The notes: generated by a model not told the origin, from the sequence alone. A stretch of DNA of 64,000 bases from Minisyncoccota bacterium (GCA_028716745.1 JAQUPE010000001.1:30203-94202), one strand, 5' to 3'; shown: positions 14,646-58,830, counted from the stretch's first letter. Made by a program: numbers and translations.

Positions 14646-15200
14646 ATGTTAAAGGGAGTAAAGAAGGTTTCAAAGGAGTACCATTCTCGGATCGGAAGCG
14701 AAATAGAAAAAAGGAGGGGTTCGGAATTTACCTATGAGGACATTACCAAGGCAACGGGGCTAGGCGTTAATACGGTTTGCTGCTGCCTTTCGCAATTCCT
14801 CAGGAAGGGGTTTCTCAACCGCGTTGGCCGTATAACCAGGAAGCCGAGAAATCTCAGGCTTTCCATATTTCGGCAAAGAAAACCTTTGCTGAAAATCGCT
14901 CCCGCAGGAAACGTCGCCGAAGAAGTCTGGCAGATATTCCAGGGCGTTCTGGAAAAAGAAGGCAGCCACTCATACATTTCCGCAAAGGAAATATGGGAAA
15001 GGACAAATGGCTGCAACAGAAAGAGCGTTCGGGGAGTGGTGTCCAGATTGTACTTATTAGGGTACCTCGAGAGATGGAAATCAAAATATTGCCTGAAGGC
15101 GCAGTATAGAGGCATGTCTAGACCTCTCGTGGTCAGCAAGCCCAAATACATCACCGTCCCGCTGGTGCAGCCGCAATACGCAGCCGCGGTCTCCCAGTAG
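14646..15200 (+). CDS. high-G+C hypothetical protein with two winged-helix-like segments (KYCLK motif)
   Basis: Strong SD ggggagggcggATG; ...RLYLLGYLERWKSKYCLK shared with the next gene. Confidence 0.45.
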   Translation: MLKGVKKVSKEYHSRIGSEIEKRRGSEFTYEDITKATGLGVNTVCCCLSQFLRKGFLNRVGRITRKPRNLRLSIFRQRKPLLKIAPAGNVAEEVWQIFQGVLEKEGSHSYISAKEIWERTNGCNRKSVRGVVSRLYLLGYLERWKSKYCLKAQYRGMSRPLVVSKPKYITVPLVQPQYAAAVSQ

Positions 15201-35893: not shown

Positions 35894-37123
35894 ATGAAAG
35901 ACACATTAAAAAAATTATTAGAGAAGACAATAAAATATCTGGCTGGAAGGATGATTAAGAAATATCAGCCCGGAATTATAGCAGTTACAGGAAGCGTCGG
36001 TAAAACTTCCACTAAGGAGGCTATTTACGCGGCTTTGATTAAATCCAGAACAGTCAGGGCGAGCGGAGGGAACTTTAACAATGAGCTTGGAATGCCCTTA
36101 ACGATTTTAGGCGATTGGAAGAAAATTGAAGGCAAATTTTTTTGGATAAAAGTTATTTTTTCATCTTTGATAAAACTGATTTTCAAGGTTAAATATCCCG
36201 AAGCGTTGATTTTGGAATATGCCGCGGCCAAGCCGGGGGATATGAAATATCTTTTGGATATTGCCAGGCCGACGGTAAGCGTTGTCACGGCAATCGGGGA
36301 TATTCCTGTTCATGTGGAATTTTTCAGCGGACCGGAAGCGATAGCTCGTGAGAAGGCAAAAATAGTTGAAGTTTTACCGACTACAAGTTTTGCTATTTTG
36401 AATTTTGACGATCAGGCGGTTTTGGATATGAAACAGCGGACAAGAGCGCATGTTATTACTTACGGATTCGGCGACGGAGCGGAAATACAGATAACCAATT
36501 TTGAAAATAGAATGGACGGAAACAAGCCGGCGGGAATTTCTTTTAAATTGAATTATGGAGGCAGTTTTGTGCCGATCCGTTTGGATAATTGTTTCGGCAA
36601 GGCGCAGGCTTATGCCGCCGCTGCTGCAACCGCGGTGGGAATAATTTATGGAGTTAATATAGTGAAAATAGCGGAAGCGCTTTTGGAATATGAATCTCCG
36701 GAAAGGAGGGGCAAATTGATTGAAGGAATAAAATATACTTATATTCTTGATGATTCTTATAATGCTTCGCCATTATCCATGCACGCAGCTATTGAAACCG
36801 TGAAATCTTTGAAGGCGGCGAGAAAAATCGCCGTATTGGGAGATATGCTGGAAATAGGAAAATATACCGTAGAGGCGCACGAAACAATCGGCGAATTGGC
36901 GGGAAAAGTTTTTGATATTTTAATAACTGTCGGAGGCAGGGCGAAATTTATTGCCGAAACTGCGGGGAAATCCGGAATAGCAAAAAAGAATATTTATAGC
37001 TTTGATACGGCAGATGATGCCAAGCTGAAAGTCCAAGAGCTTATTAAGAAAGGGGATTTGATTTTAATTAAGGCGTCTCACGCGATGGAGCTGGATAAAG
37101 TTGTAGAGGAAATAAAAGCATAG
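35894..37123 (+). CDS. murF: UDP-MurNAc-tripeptide--D-Ala-D-Ala ligase (MurF-type Mur ligase)
   Basis: P-loop VTGSVGKTSTKE; the DDSYNASPLSM motif is characteristic of MurF; no murE between ftsI and this gene. Confidence 0.7.
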   Translation: MKDTLKKLLEKTIKYLAGRMIKKYQPGIIAVTGSVGKTSTKEAIYAALIKSRTVRASGGNFNNELGMPLTILGDWKKIEGKFFWIKVIFSSLIKLIFKVKYPEALILEYAAAKPGDMKYLLDIARPTVSVVTAIGDIPVHVEFFSGPEAIAREKAKIVEVLPTTSFAILNFDDQAVLDMKQRTRAHVITYGFGDGAEIQITNFENRMDGNKPAGISFKLNYGGSFVPIRLDNCFGKAQAYAAAAATAVGIIYGVNIVKIAEALLEYESPERRGKLIEGIKYTYILDDSYNASPLSMHAAIETVKSLKAARKIAVLGDMLEIGKYTVEAHETIGELAGKVFDILITVGGRAKFIAETAGKSGIAKKNIYSFDTADDAKLKVQELIKKGDLILIKASHAMELDKVVEEIKA

Positions 37124-37138
37124 TAAGATATTTGCGAT

Positions 37139-37210
37139 GGCCCCATCGTCTAGTGGCTAGGACGTATCCTTCTCAAGGATAAAACTCGGGTTCGATTCCC
37201 GATAGGGCTA
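37139..37210 (+). tRNA. tRNA-Glu (CTC)
   Basis: D-arm gtct-agtggcta-ggac is typical of tRNA-Glu; anticodon stem tatcc/ggata with loop ttCTCaa; T-arm tcggg-ttcgatt-cccga; one A-C mismatch in the acceptor stem. Confidence 0.55.
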
Positions 37211-37243
37211 CAAATATATTCCTTTTGTGATAATATTTATCCA

Positions 37244-37600
37244 ATGACAAGACTTTTTAATATTCCCCAGATAATAAAGGACAGGTTTGTGTCTTTTTCT
37301 TTTTTGGCCAGCTTTATCTTATTGGCTATTTCTTTCGGCGTTGCTTTTATCAATATGGATAATATGTCTAATGTGCTGGTAATCCATCTTGATAGCTATA
37401 AAGGAATAGATTTTTTTGGCGATAAAAACGATATTTTAAGCATTCTGGCATTTGGCGCGCTGGTAATTGCTCTTAACGGCATCTTGGCCAATACGCTTTA
37501 TCTAAGGGAGCGTTTTTTGTCTTATGTACTGGCGTTTTCAAGTGCTCTATTCTCTCTGTTGATATTTATGGGAATACTTGCTATTATATCAATTAATTAA
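37244..37600 (+). CDS. hypothetical integral membrane protein
   Basis: ORF with three or more hydrophobic helices. Confidence 0.4.
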   Translation: MTRLFNIPQIIKDRFVSFSFLASFILLAISFGVAFINMDNMSNVLVIHLDSYKGIDFFGDKNDILSILAFGALVIALNGILANTLYLRERFLSYVLAFSSALFSLLIFMGILAIISIN

Positions 37601-37601
37601 T

Positions 37602-37913
37602 ATGTCATTCGCAATTATAGAAACCGGGAGCAAACAATATAAGGTTTCCGCCGGTGATAAAATAAAAGTAGAAAAATTAGACGCCGAGGCCGGCGCCAAC
37701 TTGTCTTTGGATAAGGTTTTGTTGATAGCCGACGGAGAAGACGTGAAAATCGGCACTCCTTATTTGGAGAAGGCGAAAGTTGAGGCTAAAGTTTTGAGCC
37801 AAGGAAGACACGATAAAATAATAGTTTTCAAATATCATTCCAAGACCCGTTATCATAAAAAGAATGGGCACCGACAGCCATTCACCGAGTTAGAAATAGT
37901 TTCTATAAAATAG
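37602..37913 (+). CDS. rplU: 50S ribosomal protein bL21
   Basis: MSFAIIETGSKQYKVSAGDKIKVEKL; the track ORF starts further upstream at 37578 (MLLYQLIN...); the real start is likely the ATG at 37602. Confidence 0.88.
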   Translation: MSFAIIETGSKQYKVSAGDKIKVEKLDAEAGANLSLDKVLLIADGEDVKIGTPYLEKAKVEAKVLSQGRHDKIIVFKYHSKTRYHKKNGHRQPFTELEIVSIK

Positions 37914-38295
37914 TCCGACAAATGTCGGGCTATTTTTTTGGAAAAAAAGAGTACGTTAAAAATAAAATATAGGAGGGACTATGAATGTAGGGGTGAAGGT
38001 GAAAGTAAAGATTAAGGTGAAGATGAAAACTTACGGGTGGATGAAGCTGGAAGATTTCTTATCCATCTGGCAACGTCGTTTAATTCTGTATAACCAAAGT
38101 TTTCCCGCTTCAACTTGGGATAGGGCAGTGAATTTTATTACTCATAGCATCAATAAGATGTGCCCATATTGCGATCTTTGTATGGGCACTGCTACCTATC
38201 ATGTTAAATGTAAGCCTTATTATGTTGTGTATCCAGGAAGAGTTATGAAAAGACATTGCTATAAGAAGGGAATAAAAAGGAATTAGTTTAGTGCA

Positions 38296-38325
38296 GGGGC
38301 AACTCAGCCCCTTTTTTATTTGACT
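38296..38325 (+). terminator. rho-independent terminator
   Basis: ggggc-aactca-gcccc + T-run. Confidence 0.55.
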
Positions 38326-38418
38326 AGGCTGGTTTGAATAGTTAGTATTAAAAATCAAAATATTCAGATCTTTAAAATTAGAAAATAAAGCAAAATAAAT
38401 ATTCAAAGGAGAGGGGCC

Positions 38419-39522
38419 ATGAAGGGACCAGTTGGATTTGTAGGTTGGAGAGGGATGGTCGGATCGGTGCTGATGCAGAGGATGCTGGAAGAGAACGACT
38501 TCGTCGACATACCTGAGAGGCATTTTTTCAGTACTTCTCAGGTAGGCCAGAAGGGGCCGGACATTGCGGAAGGCCGGAAGCTGGAAGATGCCAACAGCGT
38601 AGAGGCGCTGAAGAAGTGCGAAATCATCGTTACTTGCCAGGGCGGGGACTGGACGAAAGAAATGTACCCGAAGATCCGGGCAGACGGCTGGAAGGGTATC
38701 TGGATTGACGCGGCCTCAACGCTGCGCATGGATCCGGAGAGCGTCATAGTTCTTGACCCGATTAACGGAGACCTGATTAAAAAGGCGATTAGCGACGGAT
38801 GCAAAACATTCGTCGGCGGCAATTGCACTGTCAGCTTGATGCTGATGGCGTGCCACGGCCTTTTTAAGAACAATCTGGTCGAGTGGGTGAGCTCTATGAC
38901 CTACCAGGCAGCTTCGGGCGCCGGCGCCAAGCATATGCAGGAACTGATTCGCCAGATGAAATTCATCGGCGAAAAGGTTGACCCTGCCACGACCGCGCTC
39001 GAGCTCGACAGGATAGTGACGGAAAGGATGGACCGCGCCGATTTTCCGAAGGAAAATTTCGGCGCTCCTTTAGCCGGCAGCTTGATTCCCTGGATTGATA
39101 TCGAGTGGGGCAGCGGCCGGACGAAGGAAGAGTGGAAGGGATACGCCGAGGCCAACAAGATTCTGGGAACCAAAACTCCTATTCCGATCGACGGACTTTG
39201 CGTTCGGGTGGGAGCCATGCGGTGCCACAGCCAGGCGTTGCTAATAAAGCTGACCCGCGACGTACCTCTGGATAAGCTGAAGTTCATGATCGGCAGAGAA
39301 GCGAACGAGTGGGCGAAGTATGTTTTCAACGACAAAAAGGAAACACTCGCGTCTCTCACTCCCGCTGCGGTATCCGGAACTCTGGACGTTGCCATCGGCC
39401 GTTTACATAAGGCTATGTATGGCCCGGAATATCTCCTTGCTTTTACGGTAGGCGATCAGCTCCTCTGGGGAGCAGCCGAACCGGTGAGAAGGACTCTGCA
39501 GATTTTCTTAGGAAATCTGTAA
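38419..39522 (+). CDS. asd: aspartate-semialdehyde dehydrogenase, E. coli/proteobacterial type (high G+C)
   Basis: High end-to-end similarity to E. coli Asd (VGFVGWRGMVGSVLMQRM..., IIVTCQGGD, TFVGGNCTVSLMLM, YQAASGAGA, GSLIPWID, GLCVRVGAMRCHSQ, AFTVGDQLLWGAAEP). Confidence 0.92.
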   Translation: MKGPVGFVGWRGMVGSVLMQRMLEENDFVDIPERHFFSTSQVGQKGPDIAEGRKLEDANSVEALKKCEIIVTCQGGDWTKEMYPKIRADGWKGIWIDAASTLRMDPESVIVLDPINGDLIKKAISDGCKTFVGGNCTVSLMLMACHGLFKNNLVEWVSSMTYQAASGAGAKHMQELIRQMKFIGEKVDPATTALELDRIVTERMDRADFPKENFGAPLAGSLIPWIDIEWGSGRTKEEWKGYAEANKILGTKTPIPIDGLCVRVGAMRCHSQALLIKLTRDVPLDKLKFMIGREANEWAKYVFNDKKETLASLTPAAVSGTLDVAIGRLHKAMYGPEYLLAFTVGDQLLWGAAEPVRRTLQIFLGNL

Positions 39523-53082: not shown

Positions 53083-53520
53083 TTACTCCTTCGGCTGGTC
53101 TATGACCATCAGCGCTCGGCAGGGGACCTCGTCGGGATTAGAAATCTTTTCTCTGGCTTCTTTCATCCAGTAGTCCAGATGTTCCCGGCTGACATATTTT
53201 GCTATGAGTTTCAGATCATCCCTTGTCGGTTTTTGTTCCAGGATCTTGTTCGCTATGCCGGCTATAAGCAGTTGGCTGTACTGCAGGATGTAGCTATAGA
53301 CGCTCATGAGTTTAGAACTGAGCGAATATTCTTTCATCCTTTTTTCGATTATAGCCATGGCATATTTGAGTCTTACGAGAAGAATCTTGAGGGACCTGTT
53401 GTTGTGGTCCTTTTTCCAGAACTCGTCCCAGAACTCGATGAGCTCCATTTCTACATTGTCGAGGAGTTCGACTTCTGATTTTCTCAGGAGTTCTTCCTCA
53501 AACTCATCCTTTTTGCTCAT
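53083..53520 (-). CDS. high-G+C hypothetical acidic/helical protein
   Basis: ORF with SD aagggggtgaaaaacctATG; upstream promoter TTGACA-N17-TATTAT (minus strand, ~53571-53600). Confidence 0.45.
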   Translation of the reverse strand: MSKKDEFEEELLRKSEVELLDNVEMELIEFWDEFWKKDHNNRSLKILLVRLKYAMAIIEKRMKEYSLSSKLMSVYSYILQYSQLLIAGIANKILEQKPTRDDLKLIAKYVSREHLDYWMKEAREKISNPDEVPCRALMVIDQPKE

Positions 53521-57789: not shown

Positions 57790-58830
57790 ATGGATATCAA
57801 AATAGGACAATTAGTTAATGACTTGCTTCGCGGCCTTGATTCCAGGCAGAAAGAAGTTCTGGAAAAGAGGTATGGCTTGAAGGACGGCAAGAATATGACC
57901 CTGGAAGCTTTGGGTGATATTTATGGCGTCACCAGAGAAAGAATGAGGCAGATTCAGAATTCAGCTTTAGAAAAGCTGAAGGCATCCGACAAAAACGGTC
58001 TTTTGGCGAAATTCACCAAAAAGGTTAGCGACCACTTAAAAAATGTCGGTGGTCTCAGAAGAGAGACTTTGCTTTTGGCTGATTTGCAGCTCTTATTTGC
58101 GGAATCATCTTCTTCTGTCTTGGACAATAAGGCAAAATTCTTAATGGAAGTTGCCGGATTTGATTATTCGCCGGAAGATAAGAGTTTTTACTCTTATTGG
58201 TTTTTAAATAATGAAAATAAAAAGAAAGCGACTGACTTTGTTGCTAAGCTCGCCAAGTTTTTGGAAAGCAAAAAGCAAACTGTTGTTACAGCTGGAACTA
58301 TAGATAAAATTTTTAAAGAAGCTATTAAGCCGCATAATTTGAAAGAATTGGTGGCTTTGAATTATATTTCTGCTTCCAAGAAATTCCATGTAAATCAGTT
58401 TGGAGATTTCGGATTGTCTAATTGGTCCGAAGTAAATCCTAAAACTGTCCGTGATTGGGCGCATTTGATTTTAAGAAAAGAAAATAAGCCTCTTCACTTT
58501 ACGGAAATAGCCAAAATGATCGGCAATGTCCGCGATGTTTCAAAAGTTATGAATCCCCAGACTGTCCATAACGAGCTTATAAAAGATATTCGCTTTGTTT
58601 TGGTTGGCCGCGGAATTTATGGATTGAAGGAGTGCGGGTTTGAACCGGGCACTACTAAAGAGGTAATGGTTCGTCTTTTAAAACAGAAGGGACCGATGTC
58701 TCCGGATGAATTATTGAAGATGGTTTTGAAAGAGAGAATTTTGAAAAAGAATACTATCCTCGTTAATTTGCAGAATAAGAAGCATTTTAAGAGATTGGAA
58801 GACGGCCGATATTCGGTTAATATGGCCTAA
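57790..58830 (+). CDS. protein with N-terminal sigma-70 region-4-like HTH and a long unknown C-terminal domain
   Basis: RQKEVLEKRYGLKDGKNMTLEALGDIYGVTRERMRQIQNSALEKLK matches the region 4.2 pattern; placement at the N-terminus is atypical. Confidence 0.45.
   Translation: MDIKIGQLVNDLLRGLDSRQKEVLEKRYGLKDGKNMTLEALGDIYGVTRERMRQIQNSALEKLKASDKNGLLAKFTKKVSDHLKNVGGLRRETLLLADLQLLFAESSSSVLDNKAKFLMEVAGFDYSPEDKSFYSYWFLNNENKKKATDFVAKLAKFLESKKQTVVTAGTIDKIFKEAIKPHNLKELVALNYISASKKFHVNQFGDFGLSNWSEVNPKTVRDWAHLILRKENKPLHFTEIAKMIGNVRDVSKVMNPQTVHNELIKDIRFVLVGRGIYGLKECGFEPGTTKEVMVRLLKQKGPMSPDELLKMVLKERILKKNTILVNLQNKKHFKRLEDGRYSVNMA

Follow-up and report, generated by a model that had tools for sequence, protein, structure and literature searches.

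A gamma-type asd gene probably inserted horizontally between rplU and recR in the common ancestor of two Paceibacteria genomes

Introduction

Aspartate-semialdehyde dehydrogenase (Asd) is an NADPH-dependent enzyme that converts beta-aspartyl phosphate to L-aspartate-beta-semialdehyde via a thioacyl intermediate on an active-site cysteine, with a histidine serving as acid/base. The aspartate-semialdehyde/diaminopimelate (DAP) branch of metabolism feeds peptidoglycan cross-links. CPR/Patescibacteria are thought to make hardly any amino acids of their own and to rely on their hosts, and a full-text literature search for Asd, aspartate semialdehyde or diaminopimelate in CPR, Patescibacteria or Parcubacteria found nothing relevant.

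The best described relatives of the Asd discussed here are the gamma-proteobacterial enzymes with solved structures, from Haemophilus influenzae (1NWC, 1TB4), Vibrio cholerae (1MB4) and Escherichia coli (1BRM, 1GL3). Our protein has a length of 367 residues and a two-domain organization in common with them, and is roughly 60-65% identical to the H. influenzae enzyme. It differs from them in its host, which belongs to the CPR and has a reduced genome, in its placement in a separate, well-supported Patescibacteria subclade, and in being encoded by a solitary gene, without adjoining aspartate-pathway genes. The other members of this Patescibacteria subclade are likewise solitary, and one of them, the copy of a sister genome, also shares the insertion site, the promoter and the ribosome-binding site (RBS); however, they have a G+C content that tracks that of their hosts, whereas the copy described here has 54% G+C in a 39% G+C genome. 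A third point of comparison is provided by horizontally acquired genes that reportedly undergo amelioration, in the sense of Lawrence and Ochman. Single-gene islets at convergent gene junctions resemble our asd in their anomalous codon usage and composition, in their presence or absence against a background of conserved synteny, and in the variable cargo of the slot that they occupy. Differently from such islets, our asd is found without integrase, tRNA target or flanking repeats and, unlike in ameliorating islets, its anomaly has outlasted near-saturating synonymous divergence and, of two hosts, it is the more AT-rich that shows it more strongly.

The gene lies in a stretch of 64,000 nucleotides, hereafter the window. 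An earlier, sequence-only reading of this DNA had presented it as an E. coli-type asd, set as a single high-G+C gene in an AT-rich genome and likely received recently from a proteobacterium. Here we analyze the gene, its insertion site and its relatives, and conclude that this description of the gene and its setting is largely correct, and that the transfer is neither recent nor, most likely, directly proteobacterial.

Results

The asd Gene and Its Product

The gene is a genuine and intact asd, whose open reading frame corresponds exactly to the one first proposed (Table 1). Its assignment to the gamma type, which corresponds to the E. coli type proposed at that time, is in agreement with profile searches with the whole protein, which scored 536.5 bits with TIGR01745 (asd_gamma; cutoff 402.9) and 559 bits with NF005144, while the rival Asd models remained under their cutoffs (asd_B, 119 vs 324; asd_EA, 47 vs 301). 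Two domains, PF01118 and PF02774, were recognized, in keeping with an NAD(P)-binding domain at the N terminus and a catalytic/dimerisation domain at the C terminus. The alignment with the solved structures of the H. influenzae, V. cholerae and E. coli enzymes is end to end (E = 1e-137 to 1e-141), residues 5-361 pairing with residues 4-367 in 1NWC and with residues 4-364 in the E. coli protein. The end-to-end orthology with the E. coli protein is therefore clear, although the "very high identity" originally ascribed to the pair was an overstatement, as the RefSeq E. coli Asd is 58% identical to ours (74% positives over 363 residues). Similarly, five of the eight sequence blocks listed as identical are indeed so in E. 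coli, and the remaining three (WIDAASTLRM, TYQAASGAGA and GLCVRVGAMRCHSQA) are each one residue off.

The motifs kept in the protein include GWRGMVGS (NADP), GGNC(136)TVS (nucleophile), TYQAASGAG, EEWKG and VRVGAMRCHSQA. Alignment with the structures and with E. coli Asd shows that the catalytic and substrate motifs GGNC(136)TVS, RCH(S)QA, DAASTLR(103)M, KEEWKG and VR(V)GA have all been retained, and the VRVGAMRCH motif is present with its Arg and His. The roles of these residues (Cys136 as nucleophile, His as acid/base, Arg, Glu and Lys in substrate binding) are presumably those of established Asd enzymology. Comparison with the sister copy gave a dN of 0.187 and a dN/dS of approximately 0.12. 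Sequence conservation and purifying selection thus argue that the protein is probably an active enzyme. It is an ordinary and already annotated one, and it is its evolutionary history that is modestly interesting.

The host belongs to the Paceibacteria (Parcubacteria/Patescibacteria, CPR) and is represented by a MAG; the identical protein is on record from a "Candidatus Pacebacteria bacterium" MAG. The gene content of the window is of CPR type, encoding LigA, GatA, PheST, TrmD, S2, MraW, FtsI, MurF, L21, RecR, DnaB and CysS, together with CorA, DnaJK, HrcA, SecDF, EF-P and ten tRNAs.

Table 1. Features of the rplU-recR region, in positions of the window
Feature	Position	Strand	Remarks
rplU (L21), left border	37602..37913	+	TIGR00061, 128.8 bits; 82% identical to sister L21
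rplU-recR intergenic segment	37914..39672		1,759 bp; insertion relative to related genomes; contains small ORF and asd
rplU terminator	37915-37928		From scan; -12.5 kcal/mol, z -4.2
Orphan ORF, 101 aa	37981..38286	+	Part of inserted segment; putative coding
Terminator-like hairpin	38295..38312	+	From scan; -11.6 kcal/mol; after small ORF, directly before asd promoter
Predicted sigma-70-like asd promoter	38320..38348	+	TTGACT-N17-TAGTAT; consensus scan
Shine-Dalgarno sequence	38406..38411	+	AAGGAG, read from the sequence; 7 nt before asd ATG
asd CDS	38419..39522	+	367-aa gamma-type Asd, EC 1.2.1.11; GC 54.4%, GC3 66%
Putative bidirectional intrinsic terminator	39542..39561		ACCCCCG-TTAA-CGCGGGGGT, with A-run/T-run flanks; would serve asd (+) and recR (-)
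recR, right border	39673..40281	-	Convergent with asd; best match TIGR00615, 150 bits, under cutoff of 162.6

The Insertion Site

The features found between and around rplU and recR are listed in Table 1; the sister orthologue of the right-border protein carries the RecR Pfam domains. For comparison we used 80 related loci from metagenome contigs scanned with the window RecR, their RecR proteins being 56-68% identical to it. An Asd-like sequence is absent from all 80, in line with the description of asd as a single high-G+C gene set in an AT-rich housekeeping neighborhood. The rplU and recR genes are convergent in 54 of these loci, and in 35 of the 54 they are separated by 70 bp or less; in the closest relatives the gap amounts to 31-36 bp, with one common hairpin and no gene remnant. 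As the relatives lack asd and mostly have a tight rplU-recR junction, asd and the small ORF preceding it (approximately 1.76 kb) represent a real insertion. In 13 loci, the same slot holds 0.3-2.4 kb of unrelated cargo, encoding two DegT-type aminotransferases, a metallophosphoesterase, a MurB-like protein and hypothetical proteins. A signature of mobility was not found at the site, where only short repeats at chance level were detected, with no integrase or transposase in the neighborhood and no tRNA target.

It had also been remarked that rpmA, encoding L27, does not follow rplU here. The gene is indeed absent from the window, but this is not odd, since L27 was found neither there nor in the loci of the 80 relatives, and rplU-recR pairs lacking rpmA are usual in the lineage. 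Throughout this lineage rplU is closed by a terminator that points toward recR and is never followed by rpmA, so that the missing rpmA is unrelated to the asd insertion.

The sharp step in G+C at the gene borders might suggest that assembly or binning had fused GC-rich DNA from a different organism with a CPR contig. We regard such an artefact as hardly credible. A Logan contig (SRR22315506), produced by another assembler, is identical to positions 36401-39627 of the window, with 0 mismatches over 3,227 bp, and spans both G+C transitions; this identical second assembly makes a chimeric join unlikely. Moreover, the arrangement recurs in the sister MAG and in two further assemblies of the sister, and the AT-rich promoter, RBS and terminators that abut the coding sequence are host-like.

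The Sister Genome and the Age of the Insertion

The sister MAG (Paceibacterota STD1_84, GCA_028715395.1) has the same gene order as the window, namely hyp118-rplU-small ORF-asd-recR-dnaB-cysS-corA, and its arrangement was found in three assemblies in all. The left junction, the RBS of the small ORF, and the promoter and RBS of asd can be aligned between the two genomes. Protein identities between window and sister are 82% for L21, 79% for DnaB, 77% for RecR, 73% for CysS, 72% for Asd, 65% for DnaJ and 63% for CorA, and the corresponding dS values are 1.58 for asd, 1.77 for DnaB, 1.31 for CysS and 2.0 for CorA. As the same insertion is present in the sister and asd has diverged as much as its flanks, the insertion predates the split of the two genomes, and the notion of a recent transfer has to be abandoned. 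On these sequence comparisons, its date would fall between the divergence of the relatives, at approximately 68% in RecR, and the window/sister split at 77%. The simplest reading would be that the insertion took place once, before the two genomes separated, and that it was thereafter passed on vertically under purifying selection.

Phylogenetic Position of Asd

A neighbor-joining (NJ) tree built from the top 120 hits in the database and 25 named genome sequences places the window Asd inside a clade of 28 sequences with a bootstrap value of 100/100; the sister group of this clade was not settled by the same tree. Clade members comprise the sister protein (P0002), that of a "Patescibacteria group bacterium" (P0017, three MAGs), P0004 and about 25 metagenome proteins. 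The contig of P0004 also encodes a CTP synthase that is nearest to proteins of Nealsonbacteria, Staskawiczbacteria and the "Parcubacteria group". The clade spans Patescibacteria of at least four lineages, and its members are 64-72% identical to the window Asd. Since this subclade is populated by Patescibacteria, the immediate donor was most likely a GC-richer member of the same phylum. Outside the sister, the context of asd differs in each CPR lineage examined, which fits either intra-phylum mobility or extensive rearrangement.

A direct and recent arrival from a proteobacterium, with asd not yet ameliorated, would account for the gamma-type family of the enzyme, for a G+C content of 54% against 39% with a GC3 of 0.66, for CTG-, AAG- and GAG-rich codons as are typical of GC-rich Proteobacteria, and for the absence of the gene from the 80 relatives. 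This view is nevertheless at odds with the shared insertion in the sister, whose Asd is 72% identical at a dS of 1.58, a divergence equal to that of the flanking core genes. It is also at odds with the tree: the best relatives outside the clade (Desulfatiglans, Desulfobacteraceae, Methylophilaceae and Neisseriaceae) are just 62-64% identical, E. coli Asd is more distant still, and among 5.8 billion proteins there is no closer donor, nor any relative closer than the sister Asd. A proteobacterial donor as originally envisaged is thus contradicted by the fully supported, Patescibacteria-populated clade, and we consider a recent transfer of this kind extremely improbable.

Composition and Codon Usage

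The high G+C content attributed to the gene was readily confirmed, as asd has 54.4% G+C compared with 39.2% elsewhere in the window and represents the top 1.1-kb value, which exceeds the window mean by 4.7 sd. Its GC3 of 0.663 is the highest among 75 genes (mean 0.398, sd 0.086, z = 3.1), and its third-position G+C differs from that of seven flanking host genes with a Fisher p value of 8e-23. The suggested analysis of codon usage shows that asd is foreign, being unlike both the bulk of the host genes and the highly expressed ones. AAG, GAG and CAG make up 67% of their codon pairs in asd and 11-47% in host genes, including those for DnaK and ribosomal proteins; C-ending codons account for 67% of pyrimidine-ending codons in asd vs 18-47% in the host, and CTG for 47% of Leu codons vs 0-19%. 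Because the excess resides at synonymous sites and involves foreign codons, protein composition cannot account for the G+C content of asd. We also note that part of the foreign codon signature is seen in the hypothetical genes at 44892-45533, 45625-46158, 14646-15200, 53083-53520 and 62193-62606.

In almost every genome examined, Proteobacteria included, asd is 1-7 G+C points above its flanks, and the excess in the window is +15 points. In the clade, the homologues have 40-49% G+C (GC3 0.30-0.57), following their hosts at 33-42%. The sequence-only reading had named as evidence against its own proposal a grouping of this Asd with homologues of the same phylum that have a similar G+C content; the phylogeny does place it with same-phylum homologues, but their G+C is not similar to 54%. 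The generally elevated G+C of asd, together with the Patescibacteria-wide distribution of the clade, could be taken to mean that there was no transfer at all, asd being ancestral at this site in Paceibacteria and repeatedly lost elsewhere, and its high G+C reflecting protein composition or selection. Such a history would have to explain why in 35 of 54 relatives rplU and recR enclose a single hairpin and no remnant, and why the context of asd is different in every other CPR lineage examined; it also leaves aside the +15-point excess with its foreign synonymous codons, which is beyond protein composition. We therefore find it very unlikely.

The comparison with the sister reveals a more puzzling feature. 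The GC3 of asd is higher in the window than in the sister (0.66 vs 0.57), whereas every syntenic host gene shows the reverse, with a GC3 0.07-0.16 lower in the window. Two conserved hypothetical genes go the way of asd, with GC3 values of 0.59 vs 0.55 and 0.56 vs 0.51 in window and sister. Over a dS of approximately 1.6, neutral amelioration would be expected to leave less of the donor signal than is seen. Most simply, the residual G+C and codon signature can be understood as incomplete amelioration, although its persistence may also be due to a very GC-rich donor combined with slow decay, to selection at synonymous sites, or to later replacement of the allele from an unsampled GC-rich relative. 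In a parsimony polarisation of synonymous changes the sister asd appears to be drifting AT-ward and the window asd not, an outcome that depends on the base composition of the outgroup, as seen with the DnaB and CysS control. As an amelioration test this polarisation was set aside, the host-gene control being sensitive to outgroup composition and the method unreliable at such divergence.

The Small ORF Preceding asd

The ORF between rplU and asd was reported to contain a hexamer repeat. The repeat exists, as six GGTGAA copies at positions 37992-38027, but it is weak (73% match, TRF score 37); (GGTGAA)x6 at the start of the ORF encodes VKVKVKIKVKMK. No Pfam or NCBIfam profile matched the ORF, and no homologue was found in any of the loci compared. 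Its identification as Prp/YsxB or as a member of another known family was accordingly rejected. At the same position the sister has a 94-aa ORF without similarity to it, and yet the upstream RBS and the downstream terminator are kept. To judge from this alignment, the two genomes have kept the flanks of the ORF in common, whereas its body has evidently undergone replacement, which would imply that turnover does happen in the rplU-recR slot.

Such turnover is relevant to an alternative history, in which the insertion is old and shared and the window copy was later replaced in situ by a GC-richer allele from an unsampled relative among the Patescibacteria, through recombination via the flanks. 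Allele replacement would explain why the window copy is GC-richer than that of the sister even though the window host is the more AT-rich, and it could draw on the polarisation, with AT-ward drift on the sister asd branch and none on that of the window, on the bootstrap value of only 64% for the window-sister pair, and on the replaced body of the adjoining small ORF between conserved flanks. On the other hand, the divergence of asd in amino acids, dN and dS matches that of the flanks, so that nothing requires a separate history; the databases hold no relative closer than the sister; and the polarisation hinges on outgroup composition. On balance we judge this replacement unlikely.

Signals Around asd

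The promoter hexamers spaced by 17 nucleotides that had been noticed upstream of asd were recovered by the consensus scan, one base off the positions 38321-38349 given earlier. In the sister both hexamers are kept (TTGACG...TAATAT) amid otherwise diverged DNA, and so is the asd RBS, AAAGGAGA. This retention within diverged DNA is the best available evidence of function, and it suggests that the predicted promoter is used. The strong bidirectional terminator anticipated downstream of asd is likewise predicted by folding, with minimum free energies of -14.8 and -15.4 kcal/mol and z values of -2.5 and -2.8 for the two strands; the sister has an analogous asd/recR hairpin of different sequence. 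Upstream, the CCC(T)TTTTTATTTGAC stretch of the terminator-like hairpin that follows the small ORF is kept in the sister. No riboswitch or other ncRNA was found upstream of asd, an Rfam scan of the whole window at gathering thresholds having given tRNAs only. With its predicted promoter, Shine-Dalgarno sequence and bidirectional terminator, asd has the appearance of a self-contained transcription unit.

Discussion

Taken together, these observations make it probable that asd was inserted horizontally in the ancestor of the window and sister genomes and has been vertically inherited since, that its donor was likely a GC-richer member of the same phylum, and that it likely serves DAP/lysine synthesis. 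In this scenario, asd and the orphan small ORF would have entered together a normally tight convergent rplU/recR junction in the common ancestor of the window genome and one sister MAG, and asd would then have been maintained by purifying selection. The donor would have been another, GC-richer, member of the Patescibacteria, and enzymes of the Proteobacteria/Desulfobacterota type would concern only the deeper origin of the subclade.

How the enzyme is used by its host can be approached from the gene neighborhood. The partner genes of the aspartate pathway are not encoded nearby: AA_kinase (aspartokinase), DHDPS, DapB and Homoserine_dh domains are absent from all window ORFs of at least 200 aa, and lysC, dapA, dapB and hom were not found next to asd in six of seven CPR contexts. 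In the seventh, that of a clade member (L090), a DHDPS-like gene lies directly upstream of asd, scoring 137 against a dapA cutoff of 206; its product falls into a small family of short proteins, the named ones among them coming from Dehalococcoidia and Nanoarchaeota. A conserved asd-dapA pair was rejected, as this neighbor fails the dapA threshold and has homologues that are not linked to asd. We also dismissed a link to an archaeal-type ADH synthase through the DeoC-family neighbor in another context (L005), which is a bona fide DeoC (155 bits, cutoff 117). From what is known of the pathway, the most likely role of the enzyme is the supply of aspartate semialdehyde for the diaminopimelate/lysine of peptidoglycan, with the partner genes elsewhere in the genome. 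FtsI and MurF are encoded in the window, beside this proposed peptidoglycan role.

A further and more speculative proposal is that the Patescibacteria possess their own gamma-type Asd subfamily that moves between lineages as a solitary promoter-gene-terminator cassette, and that in the window genome GC-rich synonymous sites have been actively kept against AT drift, either because they are selected for or because GC-rich alleles have recombined in repeatedly. We hold this to be rather doubtful. If true, it would make of Asd a metabolic "plug-in" consisting of one enzyme that works on an intermediate supplied by the host, and not a part of a full pathway.

Under our preferred reading, that of an ancestral insertion with subsequent vertical inheritance, the locus is a clean example of an old single-gene insertion: it can be dated in relative terms, it sits at a junction that bears cargo in other genomes, and its compositional signature has faded less than expected. 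The presence of a conserved and maintained, yet patchily distributed and always solitary, Asd suggests that some CPR lineages have kept, or exchange, part of the aspartate-semialdehyde/DAP branch.

Gene content of the rplU/recR junction

In 35 of the 54 related metagenome loci with convergent rplU and recR genes, the junction between the two is empty (at most 70 bp), and in 13 of the 54 it carries unrelated cargo. This cargo comprises DegT-type aminotransferases (n = 2), a metallophosphoesterase, a MurB-like protein, a small nucleoside-deoxyribosyltransferase-like ORF and hypothetical proteins. The junction looks like a site of repeated gene gain in Paceibacteria.

In both the window and the sister MAG (STD1_84, locus L002), a small ORF separates rplU from asd; the encoded peptides, of 101 and 94 aa, respectively, are unrelated, and each is an orphan. 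The approximately 75 nt 5' of the ORF, including the rplU terminator, an A/T-rich stretch and a TAGGAG ribosome-binding site, are about 90% conserved between the two genomes, as are the terminator and promoter 3' of it. The body of the small ORF looks to have been swapped like a cassette within conserved flanks. On the other side of asd, the window carries an AT-rich spacer without counterpart in the sister, whose terminator lies right next to recR. Within this spacer are a short tandem duplication (ATTTATAGAAAAAA / ATTTATAGTAAAAA) and, at 39585-39613, a promoter-like match.

In locus L090, the asd gene of a Patescibacteria-subclade member is directly preceded by a gene for a short DHDPS-family protein, which falls below the dapA equivalog cutoff. 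Its family is small, with about 24 proteins of roughly 260 aa each, and the named members come from Dehalococcoidia and Nanoarchaeota MAGs.

Features of the window and of related loci
Feature	Location	Strand	Remarks
Small ORF, rplU-asd interval	37981-38286		window
Sister counterpart of small ORF	L002:1971-2255		
AT-rich spacer	39562-39672		~110 bp, asd terminator to recR stop codon
GC-rich hypothetical gene	14646-15200	+	GC3 within 0.56-0.60
GC-rich hypothetical gene	44892-45533	+	GC3 within 0.56-0.60
GC-rich hypothetical gene	45625-46158	-	GC3 within 0.56-0.60
GC-rich hypothetical gene	53083-53520	-	GC3 within 0.56-0.60
GC-rich hypothetical gene	62193-62606	+	GC3 within 0.56-0.60
Sigma-70 region 4 (N-terminal) + HARE-HTH protein	57790-58830	+	346 aa
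VirD4/TraG/TrwB-like type IV coupling ATPase	60265-61800	+	PF10412, PF02534, PF12696
rplU/recR junction, relative	L125:6595-8954		
rplU/recR junction, relative	L126:6592-7315		
rplU/recR junction, relative	L130:6649-7893		
rplU/recR junction, relative	L152:3811-5141		
rplU/recR junction, relative	L160:6622-8016		
Short DHDPS-family protein	L090:946-1734		262 aa

Base composition and further candidate acquisitions

Third-codon-position G+C (GC3) of every syntenic host gene within 39673-47965 is 0.07-0.16 lower in the window than in the sister, which suggests AT-ward drift of the window lineage since their split; asd and two hypothetical genes differ in the opposite direction. Five GC-rich hypothetical genes, none with an above-threshold Pfam or NCBIfam family (one has a weak DUF218 match), show partly asd-like codon usage, with CTG at 24-37% of leucines, and may be further old acquisitions from GC-richer donors. 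Those starting at 44892 and 45625 have conserved counterparts in the sister, at 51 and 42% identity, respectively, which are GC-rich as well. The gene at 44892 has a strong AT skew (up to 0.5), is overlapped by a long antisense ORF (44913-45536) and encodes a Lys/Glu-rich product with CxxC...CxxC motifs at each end and a Pro/His-rich tail.

The domain pairing of the sigma-like protein is an unusual architecture among such factors. The coupling ATPase, surrounded by hypothetical genes, may be part of a DNA-uptake or transfer apparatus, which, if true, would bear on gene gain by this genome.
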